IMG/VR virus record: IMGVR_UViG_3300024344_003081
Length of the DNA: 64,000 nucleotides
Reading direction: 5' to 3' (one strand)
From: a virus
Taxonomy: Duplodnaviria; Caudoviricetes
Shown one piece after another: positions 1-64,000 of the stretch. The position numbers and the translations under genes are program-made. The notes under the pieces were generated by a model. That model did not search any database and was not told where the DNA came from. It saw nothing but the letters and a program-made list of their open reading frames with translations. Position 1 is the stretch's first letter. Each line of letters starts with the position of its first letter.

Positions 1-152
1 CAGACGAAAATAATATGTTTATAAGAAAAGATACAACTATAGATGATGTTTATAATTGGACTATTGATATTGAAAAAAAGAAAACATCAGTTGATATGAA
101 AAAATTCGATCCTGATAAAATCATTAAAAAATGGACTAAACTATTAAAATGA
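1..152 (+). CDS. 3' end of a gene truncated by the window edge (possibly a glycosyltransferase-like protein)
   Basis: Open frame from base 3 (DENNMFIRK...FDPDKIIKKWTKLLK*) ending at TGA 150-152, overlapping the next ATG; product is a guess from the C-terminal pattern and context. Confidence 0.4.
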   Translation, partial: DENNMFIRKDTTIDDVYNWTIDIEKKKTSVDMKKFDPDKIIKKWTKLLK

Positions 153-781
153 ATTCGCCAAATCCAAAAGATTTAATAAAAGCAGGTGCCCAGTTTGCTT
201 ATCCTGTTCAGTGGAGAAGATGGGAAGTAATTAATGTTTTTGTCACACAATTTAATTGGAAAATAGGTGTTGAAATTGGTGTTAATGAGGGTTTAAATAT
301 TTTTGAAGTAGCAAAAAATAATGAAAAATTAAAAATTTATGGTGTTGATCCATACAAAGTGCAAGAAGAAAATACTTTATATGAAAAAAAGATAGGTGAA
401 GTACAAAAATTTAATAGAAAAAGATATGATAATGATTCTTTAAATATGATTAGAAGAAGAATGTTAAAAGAGTCTCTTAAATATTCAAATCTTAAAATAA
501 TTATAGATACTTCTGTTAATGCTTCAAAACAATTTGATAAAGAATCAATTGATTTTGTTTTTATAGATGGAGATCATAGTTATGAAAGTGTTAAAAGTGA
601 TATAAAATATTGGGAGCCAATAGTAAAAGAAAATGGTTTAATTATGGGTCATGATTATAATTGGGGCGATGTTGCCAGAGCAGTTGGAGAAAATTTTAAT
701 GAAGTTTGGATATTACCTGATAATGTTTGGGTAGCTTCAAAAGTCTGGTTAAGAAATGTTAGAAAAAATTTCAATAGATAA
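149..781 (+). CDS. Class I SAM-dependent methyltransferase (Methyltransf_24-like)
   Basis: Motifs GVEIGVNEG, YGVDPY, FVFIDGDHSYESVKSD, GLIMGHDY. Confidence 0.8.
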   Translation: MNSPNPKDLIKAGAQFAYPVQWRRWEVINVFVTQFNWKIGVEIGVNEGLNIFEVAKNNEKLKIYGVDPYKVQEENTLYEKKIGEVQKFNRKRYDNDSLNMIRRRMLKESLKYSNLKIIIDTSVNASKQFDKESIDFVFIDGDHSYESVKSDIKYWEPIVKENGLIMGHDYNWGDVARAVGENFNEVWILPDNVWVASKVWLRNVRKNFNR

Positions 782-2252
782 GAAAAATGAAGTCTACATG
801 TTGGTTCAAGCAGAACCAGGTATTGAACAGGAAATAAGTGAATATTTTACTTTTTTTATTCCTGGTTATAGATTTATGCCGTCTTACAGAAATAAAATGT
901 GGGATGGTAAAATTAGACTTTTTAATTTAAGATCAAAAGAATTATATATTGGATTATTAGATCATTTACTTAAATTTTCAAAAGAAAGACAATATGAAAT
1001 AGAGTATAAAAGTTTTCCTAAAAGTTTAAATAAATATGATAAAGAGGACTATGAAAGATTTGCCAAAAGTCTTGCATTAACAATTAATGCTAGAGATTAT
1101 CAGATTGATACGTTTTTATACGCTATAAATCATGAAAGGTGCTTACTTCTCTCTCCCACAGCATCTGGCAAATCTTTCATAATTTATCTTCTTTTAAGAT
1201 ATTATCAACAAAAACTTCCAACCTTTAAAGCATTAATAGTAGTTCCCACAACATCTTTAGTCGCACAAATGAAAAGTGATTTTGCTGATTATTCTAAAAC
1301 AGATAATTGGGATGCTTCGGAAAATATTCATCAAATTTATGCAGGTAAAGATCGAGTATCACCTAAACCCATTTATATTTCTACTTGGCAATCTTTATAT
1401 AAAATGACTATTAATTATTATGCTGAATTTGATTTTATTTTAGGTGATGAGGCCCATCTTTTTAAAGCAAAATCACTTACATCAATAATGGAAAAGACAA
1501 CCAAAACGAAATATAAATTTGGAACAACTGGAACTTTAGATGGTACGTTAACACATAAATTGGTATTAGAAGGATTATTTGGAAAGACTTATACAGTAAC
1601 AACTACAAAAGATTTAATAGATAAAAAAACATTATCTCCATTTCAGATTAAGTGTTTAGTTTTACAATATCCTGAAAAATTATGTGAATTAGTTAAATCA
1701 TATAATTATAAAGAAGAACTTAATTGTATTGTTTCAAATGAAGCAAGAAATAGATTCATTAGAAATCTTGCAATAAGTTTAAGCAATAATACTTTAGTAT
1801 TATTTCAAATGGTAGAAAAACATGGAAGAATAATTTATGACCTCATCAAAGAAAAGACAAAAAAAGAAAGAAAAATCTTTTTCGTATACGGGGGGACGGA
1901 AACCTCCGATAGAGAAGATATTCGAAAAATCGTTGAATCTGAATCAGATGCCATCATTGTTGCGAGTTACGGTACCTTTTCTACTGGTATCAATATTACT
2001 AATTTACATAATGTTATTTTTGCTTCTCCTTCTAAGTCAAGGGTAAGAAATTTACAGAGTATAGGAAGAGGTCTTAGAAAAAATGCATCAAAAGAAATAG
2101 CTACATTATATGATATATCTGATGATTTTACCTATAAAAGCTATAAGAACTATACTTTAAAACATTTTGTTGAAAGAATAAAGATTTATAATGAAGAGCA
2201 GTTTGAATATAAAATAATAATTGTACCAATTGGCGCTCCGCAGAAATTTTAG
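756..2252 (+). CDS. uvsW: UvsW SF2 DNA helicase
   Basis: Walker A SPTASGKS, DEAH box, GTTGT, QSIGRGLR, T4-type N-terminus; precedes gp55. Confidence 0.95.
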   Translation: MLEKISIDKKNEVYMLVQAEPGIEQEISEYFTFFIPGYRFMPSYRNKMWDGKIRLFNLRSKELYIGLLDHLLKFSKERQYEIEYKSFPKSLNKYDKEDYERFAKSLALTINARDYQIDTFLYAINHERCLLLSPTASGKSFIIYLLLRYYQQKLPTFKALIVVPTTSLVAQMKSDFADYSKTDNWDASENIHQIYAGKDRVSPKPIYISTWQSLYKMTINYYAEFDFILGDEAHLFKAKSLTSIMEKTTKTKYKFGTTGTLDGTLTHKLVLEGLFGKTYTVTTTKDLIDKKTLSPFQIKCLVLQYPEKLCELVKSYNYKEELNCIVSNEARNRFIRNLAISLSNNTLVLFQMVEKHGRIIYDLIKEKTKKERKIFFVYGGTETSDREDIRKIVESESDAIIVASYGTFSTGINITNLHNVIFASPSKSRVRNLQSIGRGLRKNASKEIATLYDISDDFTYKSYKNYTLKHFVERIKIYNEEQFEYKIIIVPIGAPQKF

Positions 2253-2294
2253 CATTTTTACCGTACGATTAAATATATATAAAATCAATTATAC

Positions 2295-2324
2295 TTGACA
2301 AATAGTAAATGTTTATGTTATCAT
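2295..2324 (+). promoter_or_regulatory. sigma70-type promoter
   Basis: TTGACA(2295)-18 nt-TGn-TATCAT(2319) upstream of gp55. Confidence 0.65.
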
Positions 2325-2358
2325 AGTAGTTCAATTAATAACTTAATGGAGAGCCATT

Positions 2359-2907
2359 ATGGCCAATTATATAAACAATGAAGATTTTCTTAATGCAATG
2401 ATTGTGTATAAAGAAGATATCAAAAAAGCAGAGGAAAAAAATATAGAAATTCCACCTGTTCCAGATTATATAGGAGAATGTTTTTTACTTATAGCGGAAA
2501 GACTTTCTTTTAGACCTAATTTTATAAATTATGCATTTAAAGATGATATGATTTCTGATGGTATAGAAAATTGTCTTCAATATGTTAATAATTTTAATCC
2601 AGAAAAATCAAAAAATCCCTTTGCATATTTTACTCAAATAATTTATTGGGCATTTGTTAGAAGAATACAAAAAGAAAAGAAGAATTTATATATCAAATAT
2701 AAAGAAATGGAAAGAATGTCCTATCTTGAAGATCATATAGAAACGAGTTCGGATGATAATAAGGAATATTTGAGTTTAATAGGATCTGCTGATTCTAGAA
2801 ATATGATATCTCAATTTATAGAAGATTTTGAAGAAAAAAGATTTAAGAAAAGAAAGAAAAAAGAAGACGATACCGTTGTTTCTAATATTGGATCAGTTAG
2901 TATATGA
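2359..2907 (+). CDS. gp55: Late-transcription sigma factor gp55
   Basis: YINNEDF...RPNFINYAFKDDMISDGIENC...NPFAYFTQIIYWAFVRRIQKEKK; synteny with gp47/gp46. Confidence 0.95.
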   Translation: MANYINNEDFLNAMIVYKEDIKKAEEKNIEIPPVPDYIGECFLLIAERLSFRPNFINYAFKDDMISDGIENCLQYVNNFNPEKSKNPFAYFTQIIYWAFVRRIQKEKKNLYIKYKEMERMSYLEDHIETSSDDNKEYLSLIGSADSRNMISQFIEDFEEKRFKKRKKKEDDTVVSNIGSVSI

Positions 2908-3980
2908 AAATAGCATTAATCACAGATACGCATTGGGGAGCAAGAAATGATAATATTGCATTCTCCGATTATTTTAGTAAATTTTACAATAATATCTTTT
3001 TTCCCTATCTAGAAAAGCATGATATTAAGACATGTATTCATTTAGGAGATGTTGTTGATAGAAGAAAATATATTAATTTTAAAACTGCTAATGATTTAAG
3101 AGAAAATTTTGTAGAACGATTATGGAAAATGGGTGTTGATACTCATGTTATAATCGGAAATCATGATATTTTTTATAAAAACACCAATGATATAAATTCT
3201 ATGGAAGAATTGTTTTCTTCATCAGATGGTAAATATGAACCTTGGATTTATGCGAGTCCAAGAGAAGTTGAATTTGATGGTACTAAAATAATGATGATGC
3301 CTTGGATTACTTCTGATAATTATTCAGACTGTGTAAGTGCTATTAAAAAAACTAAAGCACAAATTATGATGGGACATCTTGAAATTAGTGGATTTGAAAT
3401 GCATCGTGGACAAATATGTGATACAGGCTTTACTGCAGAAATGTTTTCTAAATTTGATCTAGTTTATAGTGGACATTTTCATCATAAGTCTACACAAGGA
3501 AGTATTACATATCTTGGTAATCCTTATGAAATAACTTGGTCTGATTATCAAGATGCAAGAGGTTTTCATATATTTGATACTAAAACAAGAGAATTACAGT
3601 TTATTCAAAATCCGTATAATATGTTTCATAAAATTTATTATGATGATACCAAAGAAACATTCGAAACAATTAAAGAAAAAGATTATGAACAATATGCAGG
3701 ATCTATTGTTAAAATTATAGTTGTACAAAAACAAAATCCATATTGGTTTGACACAATGTTGGATGAATTATATAAAGTTGATATAGTGGATATATCAGTT
3801 ATAGAAAATATTGATCTTGAATTTGAAGATGATGATACAGTTGTGGATGAAGCTGAAGACACCCTTACAATTTTGAGTAATTATATAGATACATTAAATA
3901 TACAAAAAGATAAAAAAGAACTTGACACTTTAATAAGGACATTATACAATGAAGCAATCGACTATCAAATCTCAGCTTAG
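2904..3980 (+). CDS. gp47: Recombination endonuclease subunit gp47 (Mre11/SbcD-like)
   Basis: Metallophosphoesterase motifs DTHWG, GDVVD, GNHD, GHFH. Confidence 0.95.
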   Translation: MKIALITDTHWGARNDNIAFSDYFSKFYNNIFFPYLEKHDIKTCIHLGDVVDRRKYINFKTANDLRENFVERLWKMGVDTHVIIGNHDIFYKNTNDINSMEELFSSSDGKYEPWIYASPREVEFDGTKIMMMPWITSDNYSDCVSAIKKTKAQIMMGHLEISGFEMHRGQICDTGFTAEMFSKFDLVYSGHFHHKSTQGSITYLGNPYEITWSDYQDARGFHIFDTKTRELQFIQNPYNMFHKIYYDDTKETFETIKEKDYEQYAGSIVKIIVVQKQNPYWFDTMLDELYKVDIVDISVIENIDLEFEDDDTVVDEAEDTLTILSNYIDTLNIQKDKKELDTLIRTLYNEAIDYQISA

Positions 3981-4140
3981 AGAACTTGAATTAAATTTAC
4001 CAGATGAAATAATAGTAAAATTAGCATTAGATGCACATAAAAGAGATGTATCTTTAAATTCTCACATTATTGATATTTTGAAAAAAGAAACAAAAAATAA
4101 CGCATTTGATGGATCACCTCAATTACTTACTGAAAATTAA
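3949..4140 (+). CDS. Small ribbon-helix-helix (Arc-like) DNA-binding protein
   Basis: LELNLPDEIIVKLALDAHKRDVSLNSHIIDIL fits the RHH pattern. Confidence 0.55.
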   Translation: MKQSTIKSQLRELELNLPDEIIVKLALDAHKRDVSLNSHIIDILKKETKNNAFDGSPQLLTEN

Positions 4141-4291
4141 ACTTGATGAATTGTCTGTCTTAGAAGAAGAATATATTAAAACATATAGACACAAATATCA
4201 AAACAACAGAGACATAGCATACGCTAGGATTCTGGCTTGCCAAAAAGAAATAATAGAAATATTGAAATCAAATTATGATAAATTTTCATAA
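4106..4291 (+). CDS. Hypothetical protein
   Basis: 61-aa ORF coupled to gp46. Confidence 0.5.
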   Translation: MMDHLNYLLKIKLDELSVLEEEYIKTYRHKYQNNRDIAYARILACQKEIIEILKSNYDKFS

Positions 4292-5987
4292 GATCAGATG
4301 GAAAAACGTTCTTTCCACTGGTCAAAATTTTATTGAAATTGATTTAGACAAAAATCCAACAACTTTGATTGTTGGAGAAAATGGGTCTGGTAAATCTACA
4401 ATATTAGATGCTCTTACCTTTAGTCTATTCGGAAAAGCATTTCGTAATATTAATAAATCTCAAATTATCAATTCAATTAATGATAGAAATTGTCTTATTG
4501 AAACAGAATTTTCAATTGGTAATAGACACTATCTTGTACGTAGAGGAATAAAACCAAATCTATTTGAAATTGAAGTTGATGGAGCATTAATAAATCAAGA
4601 TGCAAAAGTAAGAGATTATCAAGAACATCTTGAAAAAAATATTCTTAAATTAAATTATAAATCTTTTACTCAAATTGTTGTTCTTGGTAGTTCGTCTTTT
4701 GTTCCTTTTATGCAACTCAAATCAAATGATCGTAGAATTATTATTGAAGATTTGCTCGATATTCAAATATTTTCTACAATGAATTTTATATTGAAAAGCA
4801 AAGTTTCTAATTTAAAAGAAGAACAATATCAAAATGAATTAAATTTATCAAAAGCTGAAACTGCTTTAGAATTACAAGAAGATTTTATTTCGAAAATGAA
4901 AAAAAGCAATAAACAATTAATTGCTAGTAATCAAAAAAAAATTAAAGATTCTCATAAACAAATAGAAAAATATAATTCTCTTGTTGCAACTTGTGATAAA
5001 GAAATAGCAACTCTTCAGAAACTTGTTAATGATTTTGATAAAGAACAAAAGAAACATCAAAAATTAGAACTATATCAGAATGAAATTGAAAAAAATGTAA
5101 AGAAACTTGAAAAAGAAATTGAATTTTACAATGAAAATACAGATTGTCCAACATGTAAACAAACAATTGATGATGAACATAGAAATTGCGAAATTCATTC
5201 AAAAGAAGAGAAAAAAGTAGAATTAAGTGAAGCAATTAGTAAAATAGGGAGTGATATTAAAGAATCACTTTTCGTTATTTCTGAAATGCAAACAACCCAA
5301 GAAAATATTACTGAAATTCAAAGTACTGTAACAAAACATAATGTTTCGATATCTGCAATTAATCAATATATTGAAAAAATAAATGAGGAAGTAAATCAAT
5401 TAAATGAAAATGATGTAGATGTTTCAGATGCTTCTGCAAAATTAAAAAAAATAAAATCAGAACAAAAAGATTTTTTAACATTAAAAGAACAGCATAGTAA
5501 TACACAATCTATATATGATACTGCAAGTGTTTTATTGAAAGATGGGGGCATTAAAACTTTGATTGTCAAAAAATATCTTCCAATTATGAATAAATTGATT
5601 AATAAGTATTTGGCAAATATGGACTTTTATGTTTCATTTAATCTTGATGAAAATTTTAATGAGACAATTAAATCTAGATTTCGTGATGAATTTACTTATG
5701 CTTCTTTTAGTGAAGGAGAAAAGATGCGTATTGATTTAGCTTTGCTTTTTACGTGGAGAGCAATTGCTAAGTTGAAAAATAGTATGAGTACTAATTTACT
5801 TATACTAGACGAAGTATTTGACAGTTCGCTTGATGAAGATGGAACAAGTGATTTTCTTAAAATAATACATTCTCTTGGTAGTGCATCAAATGTGTTTGTG
5901 ATAAGTCATAAGGGAGAAATACTTTATGATAAATTCAAACACATGATTAAATTTGAGAAAATTAAAAATTTTAGTAGGATAGTGTAA
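4275..5987 (+). CDS. gp46: Recombination ATPase subunit gp46 (Rad50/SbcC-like)
   Basis: GENGSGKST, zinc hook CPTC, FSEGEK signature, LILDEVFD. Confidence 0.95.
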   Translation: MINFHKIRWKNVLSTGQNFIEIDLDKNPTTLIVGENGSGKSTILDALTFSLFGKAFRNINKSQIINSINDRNCLIETEFSIGNRHYLVRRGIKPNLFEIEVDGALINQDAKVRDYQEHLEKNILKLNYKSFTQIVVLGSSSFVPFMQLKSNDRRIIIEDLLDIQIFSTMNFILKSKVSNLKEEQYQNELNLSKAETALELQEDFISKMKKSNKQLIASNQKKIKDSHKQIEKYNSLVATCDKEIATLQKLVNDFDKEQKKHQKLELYQNEIEKNVKKLEKEIEFYNENTDCPTCKQTIDDEHRNCEIHSKEEKKVELSEAISKIGSDIKESLFVISEMQTTQENITEIQSTVTKHNVSISAINQYIEKINEEVNQLNENDVDVSDASAKLKKIKSEQKDFLTLKEQHSNTQSIYDTASVLLKDGGIKTLIVKKYLPIMNKLINKYLANMDFYVSFNLDENFNETIKSRFRDEFTYASFSEGEKMRIDLALLFTWRAIAKLKNSMSTNLLILDEVFDSSLDEDGTSDFLKIIHSLGSASNVFVISHKGEILYDKFKHMIKFEKIKNFSRIV

Positions 5988-6535: not shown

Positions 6536-6650
6536 ATTATTAGTTGAAGATGTTGGAGATTATTCTGAAGATAATTTGTTAAAATTATTCTATCTTGTTA
6601 TTAAGCACAGATTTGGACATTTTTTAAAGGGCGAAGGTTTTCGTGATTGA
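6522..6650 (+). CDS. Small hypothetical protein (42 aa, missing from ORF track)
   Basis: AAGGTG RBS then ATG; MAKYKLLVEDVGDYSEDNLLKLFYLVIKHRFGHFLKGEGFRD*; fills the gap exactly. Confidence 0.6.
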   Translation: MAKYKLLVEDVGDYSEDNLLKLFYLVIKHRFGHFLKGEGFRD

Positions 6651-7485
6651 TAAAATTATCACGAATATTATTGATCAAGAAGCACCTGATCAAACAGTTG
6701 CAGTATTGATGTCTGGAGGAACAGATAGTCTAACAGTTGCCGCGGCCGCTCATAGATTGAATAAAAAATTAAATTGCTATACATTTAGAGTTGATGGAAA
6801 AGATTCTGATGATAGCATATATGCAGAAAAAGCATGTAAGCATTTTGGTTGGAATTTTAAACTTATAGATGTTCCAGTTGACAATATTGAAAATGATTTT
6901 TTTACTTTGATTAAAACATATGAATGTAAAAAGAAAACTCATGTAGAATGTACATTTCCTTTTTTATATGTTTATCCTCATATAAAAGAGAAATATATCT
7001 TAACTGGTTGGGCCGCTGATGGTTATTATGGGGTGAGCAAAAAAGCAAATATACATTTCAAACACACCAAAGAATTGATGGATGAATTCAGACGGGATTA
7101 CTTTGGTAAATTAGATGAGACTACACAAAAATTTATTCCAGGAAATCCTGTAGGAGTGAAACAACAAATGTTGTTGGCAGAATCAATAGATTCTATTTTA
7201 GTTGCTCCATACATTGATAAGACGGTCTGGGACTGGATGATACAGTATGATTGGGATTTTTTCAATAAACCATATCAGAAAGCTCCGCTATTTGATGCAT
7301 TTCCCGAATTGCTTGAAATAAAGAGAAGAAATCATCTGAATTTACAGTTAGCCGCAGGAATACCAAATTATTTTGAGAAATTGCTTGACAATAAGGAAAT
7401 TAATATCTATAATAGAAGCAGAATAATGGATTTAGTCAGAGATTGGAAAACTACAACTACAAATATAGAGGAATTTTTTGTATGA
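6643..7485 (+). CDS. Asparagine-synthase-like PP-loop ATP pyrophosphatase (synthetase domain only)
   Basis: VLMSGGTDS PP-loop; LTGWAADGYYG resembles the LSGEGADELFG motif of AsnB; no glutaminase domain. Confidence 0.75.
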   Translation: MIDKIITNIIDQEAPDQTVAVLMSGGTDSLTVAAAAHRLNKKLNCYTFRVDGKDSDDSIYAEKACKHFGWNFKLIDVPVDNIENDFFTLIKTYECKKKTHVECTFPFLYVYPHIKEKYILTGWAADGYYGVSKKANIHFKHTKELMDEFRRDYFGKLDETTQKFIPGNPVGVKQQMLLAESIDSILVAPYIDKTVWDWMIQYDWDFFNKPYQKAPLFDAFPELLEIKRRNHLNLQLAAGIPNYFEKLLDNKEINIYNRSRIMDLVRDWKTTTTNIEEFFV

Positions 7486-8705
7486 GTTATCAAAAATATT
7501 ATGTAAAAGATGTTAAAGAAAAATCATCTGAAAAACTATTTAATGTTATTAGTTGTTTTGCTGGTGGTGGAGGAAGTTCTACTGGATATAGACTCGCTGG
7601 AGCAAATATTCTTTTAATTAATGAATTTGTTGAAGAAGCAATTTCAACATATCAAGCAAATTTTCCAGATACAAACGTTTTAGTTGATGATATTAAAAAA
7701 TATACATCAGATGATTTTTTAGAAATGGCAGGAATTAAAGTTGGAGAATTAGATTTACTTGATGGTTCTCCTCCATGTTCTGCATTTTCACTTGCAGGTA
7801 AGAGAAATAAAGGATGGGAAGGTTATGTAGAAGATACAAGAGAATCTTCTATTGATCTTGAAACTGGTGAAGTTGTGCAGACAGGAGAATTAAAGAAAAA
7901 AGATGGAATAAAGAAATATTCTGAAGATAAAATTCAAGAAAGTATTGAAGATTTGTTTTTAGAATATATAAGAATTGCTAAGGGAATTCAACCAAAAGTT
8001 ATCGTAGCAGAAAATGTTAAAGGAATAACTTTTGGAGAATCTAAGAAAAAACTTTTAGAATTTATTAATGATTTTGAACGAATAGGTTATGAAGTTTCGT
8101 ATCAAGTTATGAATGCGGCTGATTTTGGAACACCTCAAGGAAGAGAAAGAACTATTTTTATTTGTGTTCGAAAAGATGTTGCAGAAACGATAGGTCTTAA
8201 TTTTATGAATATAAGTGGTATTTTTCCTACTAAAACTGTAACTAAACACGTTACAATGAGAGAGGCTTTTGAAGATATTGAAAATGATCCCGAAGAAATT
8301 AAAATGCTGACAGAGTTTGTCGAAGGTTCTTTTCAAAAAAAATTTTTAAGTTTTCTTCCATTTAATCCAGAAAAACCGATTAAACCCTCAGATAAACAAT
8401 TTCGTGAATTTAATCCTAAAGGATCATGTTTTAATATGATTCGACCAGCACCCGATCTTCCTTCTCCTACTTTGACTCAACAAGGTCAGAAGAAAGGATT
8501 GTCTGGTGTTTTTCATTATGCTGAAAATCGCAAACCGACCATTGTTGAATTTAAAAGACTTATGGGTATGCCAGAAGATTTTATTTTGACAGGTGATTTT
8601 GATCAACAAGCAGAAAGATTAGGAAGAATGGTCGCTCCAAAAATGATGAAAGAAATCGCAAATAGTATATACAAAAATGTACTAGAACCCTTTAATAAAA
8701 AATAA
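7482..8705 (+). CDS. DNA cytosine-C5 methyltransferase
   Basis: FAGGGG (motif I), GSPPCSAFS (IV), ENV (VI), QGRERTIF (VIII), GRMV (X); ATG at 7482 overlaps the upstream stop. Confidence 0.92.
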   Translation: MSYQKYYVKDVKEKSSEKLFNVISCFAGGGGSSTGYRLAGANILLINEFVEEAISTYQANFPDTNVLVDDIKKYTSDDFLEMAGIKVGELDLLDGSPPCSAFSLAGKRNKGWEGYVEDTRESSIDLETGEVVQTGELKKKDGIKKYSEDKIQESIEDLFLEYIRIAKGIQPKVIVAENVKGITFGESKKKLLEFINDFERIGYEVSYQVMNAADFGTPQGRERTIFICVRKDVAETIGLNFMNISGIFPTKTVTKHVTMREAFEDIENDPEEIKMLTEFVEGSFQKKFLSFLPFNPEKPIKPSDKQFREFNPKGSCFNMIRPAPDLPSPTLTQQGQKKGLSGVFHYAENRKPTIVEFKRLMGMPEDFILTGDFDQQAERLGRMVAPKMMKEIANSIYKNVLEPFNKK

Positions 8706-8707
8706 TT

Positions 8708-8920: not shown

Positions 8921-8932
8921 CCAAGAATTGTC

Positions 8933-8961
8933 TTGACAGTATTTCCAGATATTGATACCAT
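8933..8961 (+). promoter_or_regulatory. sigma70-type promoter
   Basis: TTGACA(8933)-17 nt-TACCAT(8956) with TGn. Confidence 0.65.
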
Positions 8962-34906: not shown

Positions 34907-35695
34907 ATGGCTGACAAAAAGATGACGGATCTGACCGATCTTACTACTGGAGTAGCATCCGATGATATTATTCATATAGTAGATGATCCATCAGGTAGTC
35001 CTGTCAATAAAAAAGTTAACGTTTTCAATCTTTTTGGAAACTTAAATCATTCTACAAATACGGGTGATGCCACTGGCAGATCATTCGTTTCTACATCTAT
35101 TTCAACTTCACTTGGTACAACTGCAGGAGATATTGCATCATTTAATGCACAAACAACACATGATCATAGAACAGGTGATGCTAATTCAGTAGTTAATGTC
35201 TATGGAGCTAAAATAGATGCAAATCTTTCGGGTTCTAATTCAATAGTCACTACTGCCGCCGCAGGTGCAAAAATCACTCTTAATATGACAAATGGTCTTC
35301 ACAAAGATAACGTGAATACTTCATATACTGGCGGTGTTACAAGAACATATGGTATGATGATTGATGTTAATGATGATGCTGGTGATAGAGCAACAAAACC
35401 AGATGCATTTATTAGTTTAAGAGACCTTGGAGGTGGTATGGCATCAACTAATGCTAATGATCCATCTGCACAAGCAGTACACTATTTTGTTGAACTGGGT
35501 TCAGAGCTTGGTGCCGCAGGTAATCAACATGGACATGTTGCCGCTTCGGCCGCCGCTAATACAACAGCAAGAGATTCAAATCTTATTATGTTTGCAACTG
35601 CTACTGCTGATATTACATCTAATGCTAGATTGCGAATGAAAGTAAATGGAACTGAATACTGGTTGTTAGCAACCGCTAATGGACATCTTAGCTGA
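34907..35695 (+). CDS. Putative tail fibre/appendage protein
   Basis: MADKKMTDL...VDDPSGSPVNKKV N-terminus paralogous to the next gene. Confidence 0.55.
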   Translation: MADKKMTDLTDLTTGVASDDIIHIVDDPSGSPVNKKVNVFNLFGNLNHSTNTGDATGRSFVSTSISTSLGTTAGDIASFNAQTTHDHRTGDANSVVNVYGAKIDANLSGSNSIVTTAAAGAKITLNMTNGLHKDNVNTSYTGGVTRTYGMMIDVNDDAGDRATKPDAFISLRDLGGGMASTNANDPSAQAVHYFVELGSELGAAGNQHGHVAASAAANTTARDSNLIMFATATADITSNARLRMKVNGTEYWLLATANGHLS

Positions 35696-39797: not shown

Positions 39798-40426
39798 TAG
39801 CAAGAGACACACTTACAATACAGAATCATACAGAAGGAGATGGAACTGCCGCCAGATTAACTAATATTGCGTTTCAAGGATGGTCTGATGGAGAAGATTC
39901 TGCTAATGATTATTTTAAGGGGTTTGGTTCAACTACATTTACTGGAAGTGGTTTAGATGATCTTACATATGGTGGAGCTTATAATTCAACTGCTGTCAGA
40001 ACTTATCGAGTGAAAATTGATGCGGCGGCCGCTACTGACACATATACTTGGTCAGAAGACGGAGGATCAACATGGGAAGCGACTGGTGTTGCAATGACAG
40101 GATCTGCACAAGAATTAAATAAAGGAATAACTGTTACATTTGCCGCAACAACTGGTCATACATTAAATGAATATTGGGAGATTACTACAATTATAACAAC
40201 AACTGCTATGCATAAATTGGGCGAAATAGTTGTTGATCATGAAGGAACTTCTGCTGATGATAAAGGAGAGTTGGTTGTAAAAACAAATAATGGATCAGGA
40301 GTAAATACAATTCAAACTTATCACTCTAATGGCGATGCAACTTTTTCTGCAAAATGTTATAATTCTGATGGGGCACATGGTTTGATAACAATTAGAGACA
40401 CTAGCGGAACGATTGTTAATACATGA
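39794..40426 (+). CDS. Putative structural protein
   Basis: Thr/Gly-rich beta-type composition; WSEDGGSTW motif. Confidence 0.5.
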   Translation: MIARDTLTIQNHTEGDGTAARLTNIAFQGWSDGEDSANDYFKGFGSTTFTGSGLDDLTYGGAYNSTAVRTYRVKIDAAAATDTYTWSEDGGSTWEATGVAMTGSAQELNKGITVTFAATTGHTLNEYWEITTIITTTAMHKLGEIVVDHEGTSADDKGELVVKTNNGSGVNTIQTYHSNGDATFSAKCYNSDGAHGLITIRDTSGTIVNT

Positions 40427-45752: not shown

Positions 45753-46101
45753 TGAATATGCTAGTTTTGACTTCGGTTTTTCCGCAGTAGATGATGAAGA
45801 ATATAAAGCAAAAACTACAGAAGTAGAAAAAAAGATTGAACAAGTAGAAGCAAAATCAAAAGATTTTTCGGCATTAGAAAAGAAAATAGATTCTGCTATT
45901 AAAGAAATCGGTTATAAAAAAGATTATTTAGAAGAAAAATATGTAGAAGATATGAGCAAAATTGAACAATTAATTTTACCTCTTTTATATAATCTTATGA
46001 AAAATCCAGATAAGGATTATATTTATTGGCCGAATCGTGAAGAAATTATTACTAAACAAATAGAAAAAATTAAAGATGTGACTCAAGATTTATCTAAATA
46101 G
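45736..46101 (+). CDS. Conserved hypothetical protein
   Basis: FDFGFSAVD...LILPLLYNL.KNPDKDYIYWPNR. Confidence 0.65.
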   Translation: MAQIPDEYASFDFGFSAVDDEEYKAKTTEVEKKIEQVEAKSKDFSALEKKIDSAIKEIGYKKDYLEEKYVEDMSKIEQLILPLLYNLMKNPDKDYIYWPNREEIITKQIEKIKDVTQDLSK

Positions 46102-46104
46102 TTT

Positions 46105-46445
46105 TATCGATGATACTGTAGAGTAGCATTTAAGACATCGGTGCGATTCCGATCAGCTCCACCAAAGGAACATCAATGAGTAGTGCAGATATGGCCATAT
46201 TAGTAGTATTAATTGTAATTGGCATAATTATGACGGGAACTTATTTTTATTTTGGTGGGTGATTCTTTGGAGGGGCTGTAATAGAATTCGATTGGATGTG
46301 ATTATACAGAGGAGATCATCTTGACAGATGTAAAATGTCATTTAAATTAATCGCAAATAATAACGATTATTATTCAGCACAAGTGGCATTAGCCGCTTAA
46401 TCGCTGGCGGGCTTATGATTGTGCCTTGGAACAGAAACAATCAGA
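46105..46445 (+). ncRNA. ssrA: Circularly permuted (two-piece) tmRNA: acceptor piece ~46105-46164, coding piece 46272-~46445, tag ANNNDYYSAQVALAA at 46353-46400
   Basis: T-arm ATCGG-TGCGATT-CCGAT and CAGCTCC-A-CCA (to 46164) lie upstream of GGGGCTG (46272); acceptor stem has the G3:U70 alanine pair; tag ends LAA*; outer boundaries approximate. Confidence 0.9.
46176..46262 (+). CDS. 28-aa single-TM peptide inside the tmRNA intervening segment
   Basis: AAGGAA RBS; MSSADMAILVVLIVIGIIMTGTYFYFGG*. Confidence 0.55.
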   Translation: MSSADMAILVVLIVIGIIMTGTYFYFGG

Positions 46446-46464
46446 CACACACAACACACACACA
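46445..46464 (+). repeat. AC-dinucleotide-rich tract before an RBS
   Basis: ACACACACAACACACACACA then TAAGGAG. Confidence 0.8.
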
Positions 46465-46476
46465 TAAGGAGAAAAT

Positions 46477-46704
46477 ATGTCTAATCCATATGAATTAAGA
46501 TTTAGACTTTTAGAGATGGCTTCTGGTTATCTTTATGATCAACAGCAAAAACAAACACAATTCGCTATTGATGCATGGGAATTTGCAAAAGAAGAAGGTA
46601 CAGCAAATATGGAGTTGTTTAAAGACCTCCAACCCAAAAATTATACTATTGAAGACATAAAGAATAAAGCTACTGAACTTTATGAATTTGTTGAAAAAAA
46701 ATAA
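46477..46704 (+). CDS. Conserved small hypothetical protein
   Basis: MSNPYELRFRLLEMA...KATELYEFVEKK; strong RBS. Confidence 0.7.
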   Translation: MSNPYELRFRLLEMASGYLYDQQQKQTQFAIDAWEFAKEEGTANMELFKDLQPKNYTIEDIKNKATELYEFVEKK

Positions 46705-53718: not shown

Positions 53719-53731
53719 TTGAGAGTTTATT

Positions 53732-56246: not shown

Positions 56247-56261
56247 GAGGGTGAATAAAAA

Positions 56262-57539: not shown

Positions 57540-57549
57540 AAGGAGTAAA

Positions 57550-58632
57550 ATGAAAAGTGGAGATGTGGCAACAGGTGTAGATGTATCAAAAGAAACAAGT
57601 GTTGGAAATGAAGATGTTGGCGCAAGTGCAGAAGCCCATGCAGAAGCAGGTGTAGAAGTAACCGATTCTAGTGTAAGTGCAGAAGCAGAAGTTGGCGCAA
57701 GTGCAGAAGCACATGCAGGTACTACAGTAGGTGGAGTTGATTTAGAAGCAGAGGCATCAGTAGAAGCAGAAGCACATGCAACGGCAGGTGCAGAAATTAC
57801 AGATACAGATGTGAGTGCAGGAGCAGAAGTTGGTGCAAGTGTAGAAGCCAGTGTGGAAGCAAGTGCAGGATCAGATACTACAATAGGTGATACAGGTATT
57901 GATGTAGGAGCAGAAACTTCAGTAGGAGCAACTGCAGAAGCACATGTAGGAGCAGAAGCAGAAGCAACTGCTGGACTTCATGGAGTAGAAGGACATGCAG
58001 GAGCAGAAGTTGGTGCAAGTGTTGGTGTAGAATCAGAATCATCTGTTCAAGTTGGTGCGGCAGAAGCAACTGGAAGTGCAGGAGTAAGTATTGGAGTGCA
58101 AGCTGGTGCAGAAGTCGGTGGAGGCGCAACTTTTGATGAGGGAACGATTAGTATGGGAGTTGATGGACATATTGCGTTACTTGCTGGTGTGGATCTTGAT
58201 TTAGAAGTAGATATTGATACTAAAGAAGCATTGAGAGAAGCAAAAGATGCGGCCCAAGAAGCACAAAAACTGGCGGATGAAGCAAAAAAAGCGGCTTTAG
58301 CACATGATAAAGAAGTTGCTGAAGCAAAAAGATTAGCAGAAGAACATGCTAAAGAAGTAGCAAAAGCCGCTCAAGAGAAAATTCTGAAAGATAAAGAATA
58401 CGCCGAAGAGAAGGCACGAAAAGCAAAAGCAGAAGCAGAAGAAAAAGCTAGACAAGCGGCGGAAAAAGCTAGACAAGCAAAAGAGGCCGCAGAAAGAGCG
58501 GCCGCAAAGAAAGCTGAAGAAGCTAAAAAAGCCGCGGAGAATACGGCTAAAAAGGCGAAAAAGACAACAAAGAAAACAACAAAAAAAATAACAAAAGCAT
58601 TTAGTACGAAAAAGAAAAAGAAGAAAAAATGA
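57550..58632 (+). CDS. Bipartite repeat protein: acidic (G/A)xE(A/V) beta-repeat domain plus Ala/Lys/Glu helical tail with basic end
   Basis: AGGAG RBS before ATG 57550; repeats ASAEAHAEAG/AGAEVGASV; KKTTKK...KKKKKK end. Confidence 0.65.
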   Translation: MKSGDVATGVDVSKETSVGNEDVGASAEAHAEAGVEVTDSSVSAEAEVGASAEAHAGTTVGGVDLEAEASVEAEAHATAGAEITDTDVSAGAEVGASVEASVEASAGSDTTIGDTGIDVGAETSVGATAEAHVGAEAEATAGLHGVEGHAGAEVGASVGVESESSVQVGAAEATGSAGVSIGVQAGAEVGGGATFDEGTISMGVDGHIALLAGVDLDLEVDIDTKEALREAKDAAQEAQKLADEAKKAALAHDKEVAEAKRLAEEHAKEVAKAAQEKILKDKEYAEEKARKAKAEAEEKARQAAEKARQAKEAAERAAAKKAEEAKKAAENTAKKAKKTTKKTTKKITKAFSTKKKKKKK

Positions 58633-58635
58633 AGA

Positions 58636-58989
58636 ATGCAAGATTTAAATATTAGATGTATTATACATAAATCTTCATTGATTGAATATTTTTATAAACA
58701 TACACTTGTTATTCAAGATGAAGAACATATAGATCCATTAATAGAATTTCAAGATGATTCTTGGTTACTTTATTCTTCAAAGGTCCCTAAACATAAAACG
58801 AGTTTGATTCCTCCAACTCTTCCTTTGAAAGCTATAAGACCTGTAGTAGATTCTTTGACTTTATATTATATTAAAAATTCATTAGTGATGCCTTGTTTTG
58901 ATTTATTAAAAACTACTATGGAAATTGATTTTGGTATAGTAGAAGAAAGTAAAGAAATTGTTATCACTAATATAAAAACTAAATACTAA
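58636..58989 (+). CDS. Hypothetical protein
   Basis: ORF. Confidence 0.5.
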   Translation: MQDLNIRCIIHKSSLIEYFYKHTLVIQDEEHIDPLIEFQDDSWLLYSSKVPKHKTSLIPPTLPLKAIRPVVDSLTLYYIKNSLVMPCFDLLKTTMEIDFGIVEESKEIVITNIKTKY

Positions 58990-58990
58990 T

Positions 58991-59896
58991 ATGAGAACAT
59001 TTAAAGGATATCTAACAGAACGCTTTCAAGAGTGGAAAAAACCCAATAAGCCCGCATGGACAGAAGGTCTGTCTACCATGTTATTTGATTTACGTAACTC
59101 GGGCATAAACGATTTACCAATTCCCCTATCTCCCTCTATTTTTTCAAGACTTTGGCCAAAACCCACCCGTTCAAGAGTATTTCATGTAACTGATTATATG
59201 GGAGTCGAAAATTTAGCAAGATTGCAAGGAAGAAAGAAATCAATTTCTGCATTTTATAATATTGCAAGATGGACTATTGAAGATGGTATCAGAACAGATG
59301 GGGGTTATGTTGTTGAATTAGATGCAGATGTTCTCGTTGCGGCACCAGATGATATTTCAAGTATGCCCGATAAGGGGGGAACAAGATGGATTACTTGGAA
59401 TACAATTTTTTCTCAAATGGGACAGAAAAAATATCTTAAAAGAATGGAAGATGATCTGAATGAATTCTTGATAGAACTTATTATGCAATATGCAGATGAT
59501 CCAAAATTTATGCCAGATGTTAAGAAATCTTGGATTGCTCTTGGTAAAGAATATAAGAATGAAAAAAGAATATTGTATGATATTATCAAAGATTATTTTG
59601 ATGGTATAGAGCAAGTTATACGAAAACATGGAAAAGAGTTACACTTTGTCTTTACTAATTATGTTGGAGATAGGCATATGAGGCCAGATCCAGATAGTGG
59701 AGACTATGAAGAATGGGATGAATTAGTAGTTAATAATATTAAGATTATAAAGATTCATGTAGGACCAGAATTTGCACCAGATTTTGAAGAAGATGATGAT
59801 ATAGATGGATTTCCATTTAAGGGTTGGGATGATACTGGTGATTTAACAAAGTATATTGCACAAAAAGTAAAAAAGGATCTTAAAAAAAGAAAATGA
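58991..59896 (+). CDS. Hypothetical protein
   Basis: MRTFKGYLTE N-terminus resembles other late/internal proteins of T4-like phages. Confidence 0.6.
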   Translation: MRTFKGYLTERFQEWKKPNKPAWTEGLSTMLFDLRNSGINDLPIPLSPSIFSRLWPKPTRSRVFHVTDYMGVENLARLQGRKKSISAFYNIARWTIEDGIRTDGGYVVELDADVLVAAPDDISSMPDKGGTRWITWNTIFSQMGQKKYLKRMEDDLNEFLIELIMQYADDPKFMPDVKKSWIALGKEYKNEKRILYDIIKDYFDGIEQVIRKHGKELHFVFTNYVGDRHMRPDPDSGDYEEWDELVVNNIKIIKIHVGPEFAPDFEEDDDIDGFPFKGWDDTGDLTKYIAQKVKKDLKKRK

Positions 59897-59903
59897 AAAT
59901 ATA

Positions 59904-60416
59904 ATGATAATAGATTTTAATAAAAGTATTAGTGAACAATGGAAAGATCAAACTACAACAACATCACATACAGCCGCTACGGCTGATGAAAAAGTTTTAG
60001 CAACATCAACTTTTAATACAGAAATACCATCAACAGTAATTGACATTTATAATTTTCCTAGAAAATCAAAGTCTATTGTTGCAACAAGTAAAAACAAAGA
60101 AAAGTTAATTGAATTATTTGATCTCATTGAATCAAAAAATGAAACGACATTGAAATTTAATGAGTCAGAAGATTTATTTGTTTCTGAAGAATTTAAACAT
60201 TTTAAAGAAGTTCAATTTGATATTTTTCCTCTAACAATGGATGTGAATAAGCTATTTACAGATTTTAAACAACTGTTACAGTTAAAAAATATGACTATTA
60301 TTTGTAAATTTAGTCCAGAAATAGCTTGCCATGAAGTGCTAGATATGTTAAAATATGTGTTAGTATTAAAAAATAAGAATTATCCTGGAATTGTAATAAT
60401 TAAAGATGAGATATGA
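59904..60416 (+). CDS. Hypothetical protein
   Basis: ORF coupled to guaC. Confidence 0.5.
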   Translation: MIIDFNKSISEQWKDQTTTTSHTAATADEKVLATSTFNTEIPSTVIDIYNFPRKSKSIVATSKNKEKLIELFDLIESKNETTLKFNESEDLFVSEEFKHFKEVQFDIFPLTMDVNKLFTDFKQLLQLKNMTIICKFSPEIACHEVLDMLKYVLVLKNKNYPGIVIIKDEI

Positions 60417-61396
60417 GAATACAAGATGATATAAAACTTGATTTTGATGATGTTTTAATCAAGCCTAAAAGATCCACCCTAGTTTCACGTAAAAAAGCAA
60501 ATCTAGAAAGAACATTTAAGTTCAAACATTCACACCATCGATGGACAGGAATTCCTATAATTGCATCCAATATGGATCATACGGGAACTATTGCTATGGC
60601 TCATGTTCTTATGGAATTTCCCATGCTTACAGCATTGTGTAAATTTGTTGAGTCTACAGAATGGGGATGGAATAAAAATATAATAAGAACAATCGGTCTA
60701 GATCAAAATTTAGATGAATTAACTGATGATTCAATGTGGATTTGTCTTGATGTAGCAAATGGATATACAGAACGTTTTAATGATTATGTTGCATTAATGA
60801 GAAGACATGCCGCAACTAAAGATAGAATAATTATAGCAGGAAATGTATGTACACCAGAAGCAACAGAACAAATACTTTTAGCAGGAGCCGATATCGTAAA
60901 AATAGGAATAGGTCCTGGATCGGTGTGTACAACTCGCAAAATGACAGGCGTTGGATATCCACAATTAAGTGCTACAATGGAATGTGGAGATGCGGCCCAT
61001 GGTCTAGGAGGACACATAATTACAGACGGAGGATGCACAGTTGTAGGAGATATTGCAAAAAGTTTTGGAGGTGGTGCAGATTTTGTAATGCTTGGTGGTA
61101 TGTTAGCAGGGCACAAAGAATGCGAAGGAGAAATAGAAGATGACAAAATGATATTTTATGGAATGTCTTCAACTGAAGCACAAATAAAACATCATGGTGG
61201 AAAAAAATCTCATAGAGCATCAGAAGGAAAAGCAGTTATGATAGATTACAGAGGTAATGTAGCAGATACAGTACAAGAAATCTTAGGAGGATTACGAAGT
61301 TCATGTACATATGCTGGTGCAAAATCAATTAAAGACTTGCCCAAATGTACTACATTTGTTAAGGTTAATCGACAGTTAAATACGGTATTTAATTGA
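60413..61396 (+). CDS. guaC: GMP reductase
   Basis: DIKLDFDDVLI.PKRSTL.SR, DVANGY, GIGPGSVCTTR, FYGMSS, RASEGK; no CBS domains. Confidence 0.93.
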   Translation: MRIQDDIKLDFDDVLIKPKRSTLVSRKKANLERTFKFKHSHHRWTGIPIIASNMDHTGTIAMAHVLMEFPMLTALCKFVESTEWGWNKNIIRTIGLDQNLDELTDDSMWICLDVANGYTERFNDYVALMRRHAATKDRIIIAGNVCTPEATEQILLAGADIVKIGIGPGSVCTTRKMTGVGYPQLSATMECGDAAHGLGGHIITDGGCTVVGDIAKSFGGGADFVMLGGMLAGHKECEGEIEDDKMIFYGMSSTEAQIKHHGGKKSHRASEGKAVMIDYRGNVADTVQEILGGLRSSCTYAGAKSIKDLPKCTTFVKVNRQLNTVFN

Positions 61397-61434
61397 ACTC
61401 TAATCATATCTTAACAATATTCTAACAATAGAAA

Positions 61435-61442
61435 TATAAATA
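61435..61442 (+). promoter_or_regulatory. T4-type late promoter TATAAATA
   Basis: Exact consensus, intergenic. Confidence 0.55.
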
Positions 61443-61510
61443 TTTTGGATGGATATGCAAAAGGAACACAGAACACTTTACGATAAATGGAAATATAAAA
61501 AAGGAGATAT

Positions 61511-62476
61511 GTGGATTTAGTAACATTGTATACTATAGTTGGATTTTCTCTAGCGAGTTATTCAGTTATAGCTAATGATTCAGTCCAGACCCTTGGTACA
61601 TGGATGGCATCAAATCAAGCACGGTTCAAGTGGTATTACATGTGGGCCGCCGCTAGTTTTGTTTTGCTATTCACAATTTGGTATGGTTGGTCTATCAACG
61701 CAGGTGATATATCGTATGGCAGATTAAACAAAATCCCATACATCCCCATAGAATGGTATCATGCCATAGCACCACTCATTCTTGTAGCCCTCACAAGATT
61801 CGGTGTTCCCGTCAGCACAACATTTTTAGTTCTATCTGCATTTGCTAGTACAGTAGTTCTAGAAAAGGTTCTTACCAAATCAGCATTAGGATATATTGTT
61901 GCCGCTTCGGCCGCTTATCTCATATGGTTGCTTGTTGCAAGGTTTTGGGAGTCAAAGAAAGATATTCCAGAGTCGCATGACAAGTATTGGAGAGTGGCAC
62001 AATGGTGTACAACAGGTTGGTTATGGTTCACTTGGTTGTCGCATGACATGGCAAACATAGCAGTATATCTACCTAGACAAGTTCCTGTTAATGTAATGAT
62101 TATCATTAGCATTATATTTGTCGCAGGTCTAGGTTATATGTTCCATGAGAAAGGTGGTAGAATACAAGAAGTTGTATTGAGTAAGACAAACACAAAATAT
62201 GTCAGGTCTGCAACATTAGTTGACTTGATTTATAGTTTGATATTGTGGTACTTCAAAGGATATAATGATATTCCAATGAGTACAACTTGGGTGTTTGTTG
62301 GTTTGCTTGCAGGTAGAGAACTTGCATTTGCAACGATAACTGGTGAGCATACATTTAAAACTGTTTTTCCATTGATAGGAAAAGATTTCTTCAAGATGAT
62401 TATAGGTCTTTCTTTGTCAGTTGTCATTGTACTATTAATTCATGGATTTGCATTCGATGGTTTGAAAACCAATTGA
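61511..62476 (+). CDS. Multi-TM transporter related to the PiT (inorganic phosphate transporter) family
   Basis: Duplicated PiT-like signatures: IANDSVQ / GVPVSTT and SHDMAN / DIPMSTT; GTG start. Confidence 0.6.
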   Translation: MDLVTLYTIVGFSLASYSVIANDSVQTLGTWMASNQARFKWYYMWAAASFVLLFTIWYGWSINAGDISYGRLNKIPYIPIEWYHAIAPLILVALTRFGVPVSTTFLVLSAFASTVVLEKVLTKSALGYIVAASAAYLIWLLVARFWESKKDIPESHDKYWRVAQWCTTGWLWFTWLSHDMANIAVYLPRQVPVNVMIIISIIFVAGLGYMFHEKGGRIQEVVLSKTNTKYVRSATLVDLIYSLILWYFKGYNDIPMSTTWVFVGLLAGRELAFATITGEHTFKTVFPLIGKDFFKMIIGLSLSVVIVLLIHGFAFDGLKTN

Positions 62477-62523
62477 TTAAAAATAATCGGAGTGCTTTGG
62501 CACTCCACTTCCCATTTTTTATT

Positions 62524-63117
62524 ATGATAATACAAAAAGATAATAATGATCCAAATGGGTATGCATTTGAGGATGCTTTAGCAAAAGCACAATACATGTA
62601 TCCAAAACCCAGAAATCCTCACATACATACAATTTTACAACATGCTCAACAGATTTATGATGGTGAATTAATTGAACGATCTATTTGTAAACAACTTCCC
62701 GATTTTAAACCCATCAATATGATAAATTGTAAGAAGTATTTTGAGGAAATGAAGCCATGGGAATTCTTATTGAAGACTAAAGAAAGAAAAATATCAAAAG
62801 AAATGATGAGAAAAAATAATGGTGCATGGGAAACATATTATGAAGAAAAAAATGTTACAGAATGGGAATACATGTACTATGATATATTTCATGTTCCAAC
62901 TCTTTCTATTATAGAGTGTAAAACATATGATTCAGACGAAGGAAGAAGGGGACATTTACAACATATACGTGAAAATGATTGGAAATATAAGAATATGGAT
63001 TATTTCTTATTTGCATTGAATAAAGACGAAAAATCTTTCGAAATTACTGATTTTTTAAGTTTAAACGGTTCAAATCAATTCAAAACTCATAATATTGATG
63101 AATTTATAGAGTTATAA
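62524..63117 (+). CDS. Hypothetical protein (C-terminal D..ExK nuclease-like motif)
   Basis: YYDIFHVPTLSIIECKTY; function speculative. Confidence 0.5.
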   Translation: MIIQKDNNDPNGYAFEDALAKAQYMYPKPRNPHIHTILQHAQQIYDGELIERSICKQLPDFKPINMINCKKYFEEMKPWEFLLKTKERKISKEMMRKNNGAWETYYEEKNVTEWEYMYYDIFHVPTLSIIECKTYDSDEGRRGHLQHIRENDWKYKNMDYFLFALNKDEKSFEITDFLSLNGSNQFKTHNIDEFIEL

Positions 63118-63120
63118 ATA
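63113..63120 (+). promoter_or_regulatory. T4-type late promoter TATAAATA
   Basis: Exact consensus upstream of 63168. Confidence 0.6.
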
Positions 63121-63167
63121 TTGATAAGAATAAATATATTACTATTAAAACCCTACAAGGAGAATTA

Positions 63168-63407
63168 ATGGATTATACCTCAAGTGATCTTTTAGATAAA
63201 ATTGCAAGTGGAGAACACATTAAAGGAAAAGATGTTTTTAATGCATTGATGAATGATAGAGTGTTATCCGAACTTGGTGCTAAAAAAGTTGAAATAGCTA
63301 GAAGTTTATTACCCTCATCTGAAATTCCTCACTCGGAGATTGTTTTTGATAAAGCAAAAGACATCTCTCAAGAAGATGCCAAAGATGAGCAAGAAACCGC
63401 ACAATAA
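63168..63407 (+). CDS. Small acidic late protein, prohead-core (gp67-like) candidate
   Basis: DLLDKIASGE..KGKDVFNALMNDRV...KKVEIA pattern; late promoter upstream. Confidence 0.45.
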   Translation: MDYTSSDLLDKIASGEHIKGKDVFNALMNDRVLSELGAKKVEIARSLLPSSEIPHSEIVFDKAKDISQEDAKDEQETAQ

Positions 63408-63666
63408 AAAACAAAAAATAGATATCGTAACTGTTGAAGAGCCTAAAGAAAATATTAGGATTTTTGGTGATATAGGATTTTTACCAGACTTTTTTTATGA
63501 AGATGGTGATGTCAAAATTCCTAGAGAAGATGTAATTTATCTCTTTGATGATGACTGTGATGAGGATGTTACTGAATTTGTAAACCAACAATGGTCGGAA
63601 TTAGAAAAAGATGAGAACTTTTCAAAAGTTTGCATTGAACGAAGGATTAATCCAGATACCCCCTAA
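63385..63666 (+). CDS. Hypothetical protein
   Basis: ORF; start uncertain. Confidence 0.45.
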   Translation: MSKKPHNKKQKIDIVTVEEPKENIRIFGDIGFLPDFFYEDGDVKIPREDVIYLFDDDCDEDVTEFVNQQWSELEKDENFSKVCIERRINPDTP

Positions 63667-63715
63667 AATTTATAAGCATTTTGAAACTGCTTTATTTACA
63701 TTTGCTTTTTCACAT

Positions 63716-64000
63716 ATGATAAATGAAGTGGGAGATTATGGGTTTTCTAAAACAATTAAAAAAATAGCGGGAAAATATGGAATAAGGCGTTTTATTAAAC
63801 CCGCCGCGGAGACAAATGTAGTATATAGAAATCCCCATCAAGATATGCCGTATCAAGATTGGGATGTAGATCAAAATGATAATATTACATTATTCATGGT
63901 TTATGATGAAAAAGATGCTAGTTATAATTCCTATTACGATAGTGAACATGAAAAAACGGGCAACCCTGCGATTACGTTTTATGCTTCTAATTATGTAAAA
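63716..64000 (+). CDS. Hypothetical protein truncated by the window end
   Basis: ATG 63716, open for 95 codons to base 64000. Confidence 0.5.
   Translation, partial: MINEVGDYGFSKTIKKIAGKYGIRRFIKPAAETNVVYRNPHQDMPYQDWDVDQNDNITLFMVYDEKDASYNSYYDSEHEKTGNPAITFYASNYVK

Follow-up and report, generated by a model that had tools for sequence, protein, structure and literature searches.

Absence of GCWGC from a marine T4-like myophage: probable avoidance of a host restriction enzyme

Background

A stretch of 64,000 nucleotides from the IMG/VR virus record IMGVR_UViG_3300024344_003081 (Duplodnaviria; Caudoviricetes), hereafter called the window, was analysed over its whole length; it comes from an uncultured marine T4-like myophage. 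It raises a simple question: why should a five-base word, GCWGC (GCAGC or GCTGC), be missing from such a stretch of DNA? A preliminary description, made by reading the letters, had claimed that the word is avoided throughout the window and that this avoidance is visible as recoded Ala-Ala pairs. It had offered two agents, a host GCWGC restriction system or a nuclease encoded by the phage itself. According to the analysis presented here, GCWGC was probably lost through avoidance of a host restriction enzyme recognising GCWGC or GCAGC, within a purge that affected several sites at once; the host enzyme as agent is the part of this reading that we infer. The phenomenon is of a known kind, phages dodging the restriction enzymes of their hosts by site loss, of which this is a very clean case.

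Absence of GCWGC and recoding of Ala-Ala pairs

Exact counts in the window (31.7% GC) gave neither GCAGC nor GCTGC (0 each), against 57 GCCGC and 35 GCGGC. Markov models (orders 0-3) predicted 28-41 GCWGC sites for a window of this size. When synonymous codons were shuffled within each of the 81 called genes, with proteins and codon usage held fixed, the expectation rose to ~71 (z=-17.7) and the poorest of 200 shuffles still contained 60. The claim of window-wide avoidance was thereby confirmed, while the ~20 chance occurrences first estimated proved too low under both kinds of model. The 92 GCSGC (GCCGC or GCGGC) of the window amounted to a 17-sigma excess, which was pure compensation for the purge of GCWGC: with both strands counted, GCNGC as a whole stood at its codon-shuffle expectation (184 versus 188), so that the GCSGC excess is the other side of the same purge. 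The avoided word is indeed GCWGC and not GCNGC, as had been proposed.

The recoding was equally strict. The first codon was GCC in 54 and GCG in 33 of the 87 Ala-Ala pairs of the window, and never GCA or GCT. Ala codons without a following Ala displayed the opposite preference, 1,018 out of 1,145 (89%) being GCA or GCT; GCC and GCG were thus not equally favoured elsewhere. The pairs themselves were not depleted, since chance would give ~74 for a total of 1,232 Ala among 20,530 codons. All examples cited earlier were present in the sequence. They include the run GCC GCG GCC GCT (GCCGCGGCCGCT, 6739..6750, + strand), located inside the CmoY-like gene described below, the run GCG GCG GCC GCT (GCGGCGGCCGCT, 40022..40033, + strand) and the stretch GCC GCT TCG GCC GCC GCT (GCCGCTTCGGCCGCCGCT, 35540..35557, + strand), as well as an Ala/Lys/Glu-rich stretch (58240..58540, + strand) with eight GCSGC and no GCWGC. 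The same rule was obeyed outside ordinary genes, in the tag reading frame of the transfer-messenger RNA (tmRNA) gene (46353..46400, + strand; tag ANNNDYYSAQVALAA), which ends GCA TTA GCC GCT TAA and whose Ala-Ala is therefore written GCC GCT. Three NotI sites (GCGGCCGC, at 6742, 40025 and 58498) were encountered in these 64 kb of 32% GC DNA and are a by-product of Ala-Ala recoding.

Distribution of the purge among relatives

A phage 95% identical to that of the window was found on two contigs of 161 kb (C1) and 28 kb (C40) in the metagenome-assembled genome (MAG) Chloroflexota bacterium NAT137. The 161-kb contig displayed no GCWGC where 75 (Markov) to 99 (codon shuffle) were expected, and the second contig none where 10 were expected; the two taken together had 0 against an expectation of 85-99. 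Related loci were also gathered from IMG/VR according to the identity of individual proteins. Those with a polymerase at least 78% identical (32 loci) contained no GCWGC against 139 expected; those with a terminase at least 80% identical (31 loci) contained a single one against 254 expected, the sole site being in L140; and those with a CmoX protein at least 89% identical (five loci) contained none against 33 expected. Summed over ~770 kb of relatives' loci, one GCWGC was present instead of ~425.

This absence did not extend to all neighbouring groups. Sister clade B (polymerase 72%, terminase 78-80%; 72-80% protein identity) displayed GCWGC at or above expectation, whereas clade C (polymerase 75-76%, terminase 77%) had none out of 26 expected. 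The GCWGC purge is a trait of the lineage.

Selection on the DNA word

A purge that shows up so clearly in codons could come from a mutational or translational bias, either by deamination of methylated cytosines or through a disfavoured GCW-GCN codon pair. The one point in favour of such a bias was that in-frame Ala-Ala pairs make up 95% of the expected GCWGC sites. The change observed, however, is from a central W to a central S and leaves both cytosines in place, so that decay of 5-methylcytosine by deamination cannot be its source. Out-of-frame GCWGC sites were missing as well (0 versus ~8 expected in the 161-kb relative), and sister lineages made free use of the GCW-GCN pair: it encoded 48 of 69 Ala-Ala (70%) in clade B, 130 of 216 in clade D and 26 of 32 in Synechococcus phage S-B43, against 0 of 30 in purged clade C. 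These two observations exclude translational and codon-pair causes; deamination decay and codon-pair bias were both rejected, and a bias of either sort retains practically no probability. Selection is on the DNA word GCWGC, and not on protein or translation.

Other purged words

Restriction-type palindromes purged in this lineage numbered eight or more, and among them GCWGC was purged most strongly. Counts in the 161-kb relative, compared with codon-shuffle expectations, were 0/48 for AGATCT, 0/40 for CAGCTG, 0/36 for AAGCTT, 0/34 for ACTAGT, 0/19 for CGWCG, 0/11 for TCCGGA and 2/14 for CTTAAG (seen/expected), while CTGCAG (PstI-type), GGCC, TGCA and GCGC were at expectation. Known Type II enzymes recognise every one of these purged palindromes. 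The window likewise lacked AAGCTT, AGATCT, ACTAGT and CAGCTG, together with GAGCTC, AGGCCT and GACGC, and was poor in CCGG (6 versus 33 expected) and AGCT (79 versus 167 expected).

The purged set differed between clades A, A84, B, C and D. The 84% group retained AGATCT; clade B retained GCWGC and had lost CGCG and CTTAAG; clade C (L056, L058, L068 and L167-L169) had no GATC in 55 kb where 196 were expected, and also no GCWGC, CGCG or CTTAAG. AGCT was wholly absent from several relatives (L043, L052, L054, L067, L218 and L212), sub-lineages of clade A included, with 0 versus 48 expected in L218; avoidance of this AluI-type site is a recent gain or loss within the lineage. Differences this fine between sub-clades suggest that closely related phages encounter host strains that are not the same. 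A mosaic of many Type II-like palindromes that changes this fast matches what avoidance of host restriction predicts, and a purge of several words is more than a single phage-borne nuclease can account for.

The CmoX/CmoY module

The C5 methyltransferase gene at 7482..8705 (+ strand) had been singled out earlier with the hint that it might act on GCWGC. This did not hold. Judged by homology, the gene is of the CmoX type, a DNA cytosine C5-carboxymethyltransferase, and not a GCWGC methylase; its probable target is GpC. Its product matched PF00145 (E 6.5e-52), displayed 49% identity to the protein of S-B43 and aligned over its full length with PDB entry 8YF3, its best solved relative (E 2e-105). 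PDB 8YF3 is SpCmoX of S-B43, a C5-carboxymethyltransferase which acts on DNA cytosine in GpC and uses carboxy-S-adenosylmethionine (Cx-SAM) (PMC12783734). CmoX was defined by its authors through an SPPC motif and Arg350, the residue binding the carboxyl group of Cx-SAM (PMC12783734). Both were kept here, the motif as 'GSPPCSAFS' aligned to SpCmoX and an Arg at the position of R350 in 'ERLGRMVAP' ('ERVGRMVPP' in 8YF3). The open reading frame (ORF) is open from a TTG at 7443; its probable start is the ATG at 7482, which overlaps the stop of the preceding gene.

That preceding gene (6643..7485, + strand) encodes a CmoY-like ATP-dependent amide ligase with an Asn-synthase/PP-loop fold; it shares 47% identity with SpCmoY of S-B43. 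CmoY is an AMP-forming amide ligase that adds glycine (PMC12783734). The module therefore resembles the CmoA-CmoX-CmoY system of S-B43 in its adjoining CmoY-like and CmoX-like genes, in their order, in the identities of 47% and 49% and in the retention of SPPC and of the Arg for Cx-SAM. It differs in that CmoA, the Cx-SAM synthase, gave no tblastn match in the window or in the 189 kb of the close relative (C1 and C40). It differs also in that S-B43 retains GCWGC (58 versus 29 expected in 41 kb), and in that the modification and its sequence context are here predicted from the genes, whereas about 75% of GpC was found to be modified in S-B43, where SpCmoX modification blocks HhaI (PMC12783734). 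CmoA sequences (4,257) were reported within contigs of 5,615 candidate CmoX, and host CmoA is able to supply Cx-SAM (PMC12783734). Because CmoA was found neither in the window nor in the relative, the CmoX-like enzyme, if active, would depend on Cx-SAM from the host.

The 89%-identical locus L218 carried a 225-aa CmoA gene (L218:11263-11940) directly after CmoX. Compared with L218, the window phage, which is without CmoA, displayed a clean 690-bp indel at this junction (8691..8699, + strand). CmoY was apparently split into two ORFs in L218, and the module seems, from these gene arrangements, to be changing from one close relative to the next.

On C1 and C40 no member of the DNA methyltransferase families PF01555, PF02086 and PF02384 was detected, and the CmoX-like gene was the sole member of PF00145. 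The phage thus makes no use of ordinary methylation to protect GCWGC. The neighbouring "methylase" should be re-annotated as a member of the newly described CmoX/CmoY system of cytosine hypermodification.

The commonest motif called as N4-methylcytosine ('m4C') from SMRT (single-molecule real-time) data in marine viral MAGs was RGCY (PMC8919816). In view of CmoX, some of these RGCY calls might correspond to bulky C5 modifications of GpC instead of N4-methylcytosine.

Causes of the purge

Under the reading favoured here, a restriction enzyme that cuts at GCWGC and is present in the marine host population would have exerted selection on the lineage, over the long term and still now, to shed its target. 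The enzyme could be TseI/ApeKI-like, or BbvI-like with its target GCAGC read on both strands. Each mutation creating a GCWGC site would be removed, and wherever a protein needs Ala-Ala the first codon would have to be GCC or GCG, both rare elsewhere, turning GCWGC into GCSGC. ApeKI recognises GCWGC and BbvI recognises GCAGC. TseI has the specificity GCWGC (PMC6329791), a word which is also listed among Type II and Type IIM sites (PMC6286503), and methylation at GCWGC is present in aquatic bacteria (PMC6329791, PMC8919816). The avoided word is thus the recognition sequence of these restriction-modification systems, but neither the enzyme nor its methylase was found in sequence tied to the phage. 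The palindromic (TseI/ApeKI-type) and the asymmetric (BbvI-type, GCAGC) enzymes predict an identical pattern.

The closest parallel is restriction-site avoidance in non-temperate double-stranded DNA phages (Rusinov et al. 2018, PMC6286503), where about a tenth of phage genomes displayed complete loss of orthodox Type II sites. Common to both are the synonymous elimination of short palindromes in a phage of lytic type, the loss of several sites at once and a purged set differing between related phages. The present case differs by the coexistence of the purge with a GpC base-modification module and by an unusually clean Ala-Ala signature (87/87).

Several points weigh against host restriction as the cause. 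Modification by CmoX of both GCWGC cytosines, on both strands, would be expected to block most Type II enzymes. The only genome carrying DNA of this phage, the Chloroflexota MAG, contained GCWGC in normal numbers and, besides the phage gene, no DNA methyltransferase of the four families searched, and no cognate GCWGC restriction enzyme or methylase was seen in any sequence tied to the phage. In addition, a purge this absolute would fit a nuclease carried by the phage too. To the first of these points it may be answered that modification is probably incomplete, as proposed from the ~75% of GpC modified in S-B43 and from the failure to find a CmoA gene in the phage. The CmoX/CmoY module would probably add a bulky group on the GpC cytosine and protect incompletely, so that site loss and modification could operate side by side. 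A GpC modified to only ~75%, as in S-B43 (PMC12783734), gives a simple reason why, in a genome above 200 kb, selection for site loss persists, and the natural coexistence of both defences argues that modification alone gives incomplete protection.

The underlying claim of strong selection at the DNA level stood. Of the two agents originally offered, host restriction was the better supported, since at least seven further palindromes are purged besides GCWGC and sub-clades differ in the words they have lost; for the nuclease no support emerged. The latter alternative, in which the phage carries its own GCWGC endonuclease without a methylase, cuts the DNA of host or competitors and keeps its own genome safe by having no sites, is unlikely. 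It draws on a purge that is absolute over 225 kb or more and on p473, a 473-aa gene which separates the small-subunit from the large-subunit gene of the terminase and, in the relative, lies ~41 kb upstream of the window (G001:C1:81055-82476; L012:1055-2473). Homologues of p473 down to 28% identity displayed an invariant E...D...SxK pattern, which is typical of PD-(D/E)XK nucleases, and the p473 model (predicted local distance difference test, pLDDT, 82.6) combined an N-terminal SH3-like domain with a match, though a weak one (Z 4.7), to the PD-(D/E)XK homing endonuclease I-Ssp6803I. Foldseek retrieved from PDB the SH3-like domain only, a wider search was dominated by the same domain, and a model of the nuclease domain alone (pLDDT 58) was too poor for structure search. 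The gene was present in all 31 clade A loci covering the region, 30 of them without GCWGC and one (L140) with its single site, and was absent from unpurged clade B. This co-occurrence is confounded by descent, the loci forming one clade, and shared descent accounts for the association. Clade C was purged with an unrelated 241-aa gene in the same slot, while homologues of p473 (28-37% identity) occurred in L208-L211, which are unpurged and display GCWGC at or above expectation, besides one purged phage, L212. A lone phage restriction enzyme would be expected to be confined to purged genomes across independent lineages, which p473 is not. Furthermore, p473 matched no Pfam or PADLOC restriction-enzyme family, no nuclease family was recognised in ~50 ORFs of the window, and at least seven other words are purged, for which one nuclease is insufficient. 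A PADLOC scan of all 81 window ORFs taken together via alignment returned 139 families, but was swamped by methylase models and uninformative for nucleases. The terminase slot, which holds the 473-aa gene in clade A, an unrelated gene of ~500 aa in clade B, the 241-aa gene in clade C and nothing in clade D, looks from its gene content like a hotspot of mobile genes that possibly encode nucleases. The more specific proposal, that p473 is a GCWGC-cutting nuclease without methylase, used on host or rival DNA, and that slot genes elsewhere are nucleases matching the purged words of their own clades, is slightly less probable still. As a GCWGC nuclease, p473 was unsupported and was set aside, given that clade C is purged without it and that its distant homologues reside in unpurged phages.

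A further alternative makes the modification itself the cause: a modification-dependent enzyme (Type IIM, BisI-like) would cut C5-modified GCWGC, which the phage's own CmoX would have made dangerous. All four cytosines of GCWGC lie in GpC and would hence be modifiable by a CmoX-type enzyme (PMC12783734), GCWGC figures among Type IIM sites in REBASE-based work (PMC6286503), and the two most depleted short words of the window, GCWGC and AGCT, both contain GpC. Besides clade A, two further CmoX-bearing lineages were also depleted in GCWGC (6/30 in L223 and 2/25 in L224, seen/expected). Others bearing CmoX were nevertheless unpurged, namely S-B43 (58/29), Melnitz (35/18.5), L219 (31/22) and L102 (27/12), and conversely GCWGC-depleted L068 (clade C) and L078 were without CmoX on contigs extending beyond the syntenic position. 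Palindromes containing GpC were not significantly enriched among those purged (3/8 versus 11/79, p = 0.11), and GCSGC, GGCC, TGCA and GCGC were not avoided. Purging of GCWGC and possession of CmoX look independent among relatives, and this explanation is slightly less probable than either form of the nuclease proposal. Far less probable again is the reservation of GCWGC for a phage function, as a packaging, replication or recombination signal excluded from everywhere else. The absoluteness of the purge was all that spoke for it; such a signal needs at least one copy, and none was present in the window or in the 189 kb of the close relative, on which ground the idea was rejected. Moreover, seven other palindromes behaved alike. 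Host restriction thus remains the probable cause of the GCWGC purge.

The phage and its host

All long ORFs of the window were on the + strand. Genes of replication and recombination comprised UvsW, a gp46/47-like pair, clamp, clamp loader, RegA, DNA polymerase, UvsX and a primase-helicase, and metabolic genes comprised ThyX, a class II ribonucleotide reductase, CobS and a peptide deformylase. The tmRNA gene (46072-46491) is of the permuted, two-piece type. Permuted tmRNA is known in pelagimyophages, Melnitz and some cyanophages (PMC9004378). A megablast search with 24 kb against the phage collection retrieved only short matches, to replication genes of Synechococcus myophages. Sequence runs containing the phage were exclusively from marine, marine-plankton and "subsurface" metagenomes, and none was from a culture or a single cell.

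The other contigs of MAG NAT137 displayed 38-42% GC and normal GCWGC counts, and the tmRNA of this MAG was one-piece, unlike the permuted tmRNA of the phage. Besides the phage gene, no DNA methyltransferase of four families (N4/N6/Dam-type and C5) was detected in the MAG, nor were psbA or photosystem genes. NAT137 as host was consequently rejected: with normal GCWGC and no methyltransferase found in the four families, it cannot be the source of a restriction pressure on eight sites. The set of purged words can serve as a fingerprint of the restriction enzymes met by the phage; matching it to enzyme catalogues could help to name the host of this abundant uncultured ocean phage.

The MAG in which this ~190-kb phage of 31% GC was binned is a Chloroflexota genome of 40% GC that serves as a species representative (PAAV01000055.1 and another record). 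A homologue of a phage protein was labelled Nitrospinaceae in another MAG. Both placements, in Chloroflexota and in Nitrospinaceae, are probably binning artefacts.

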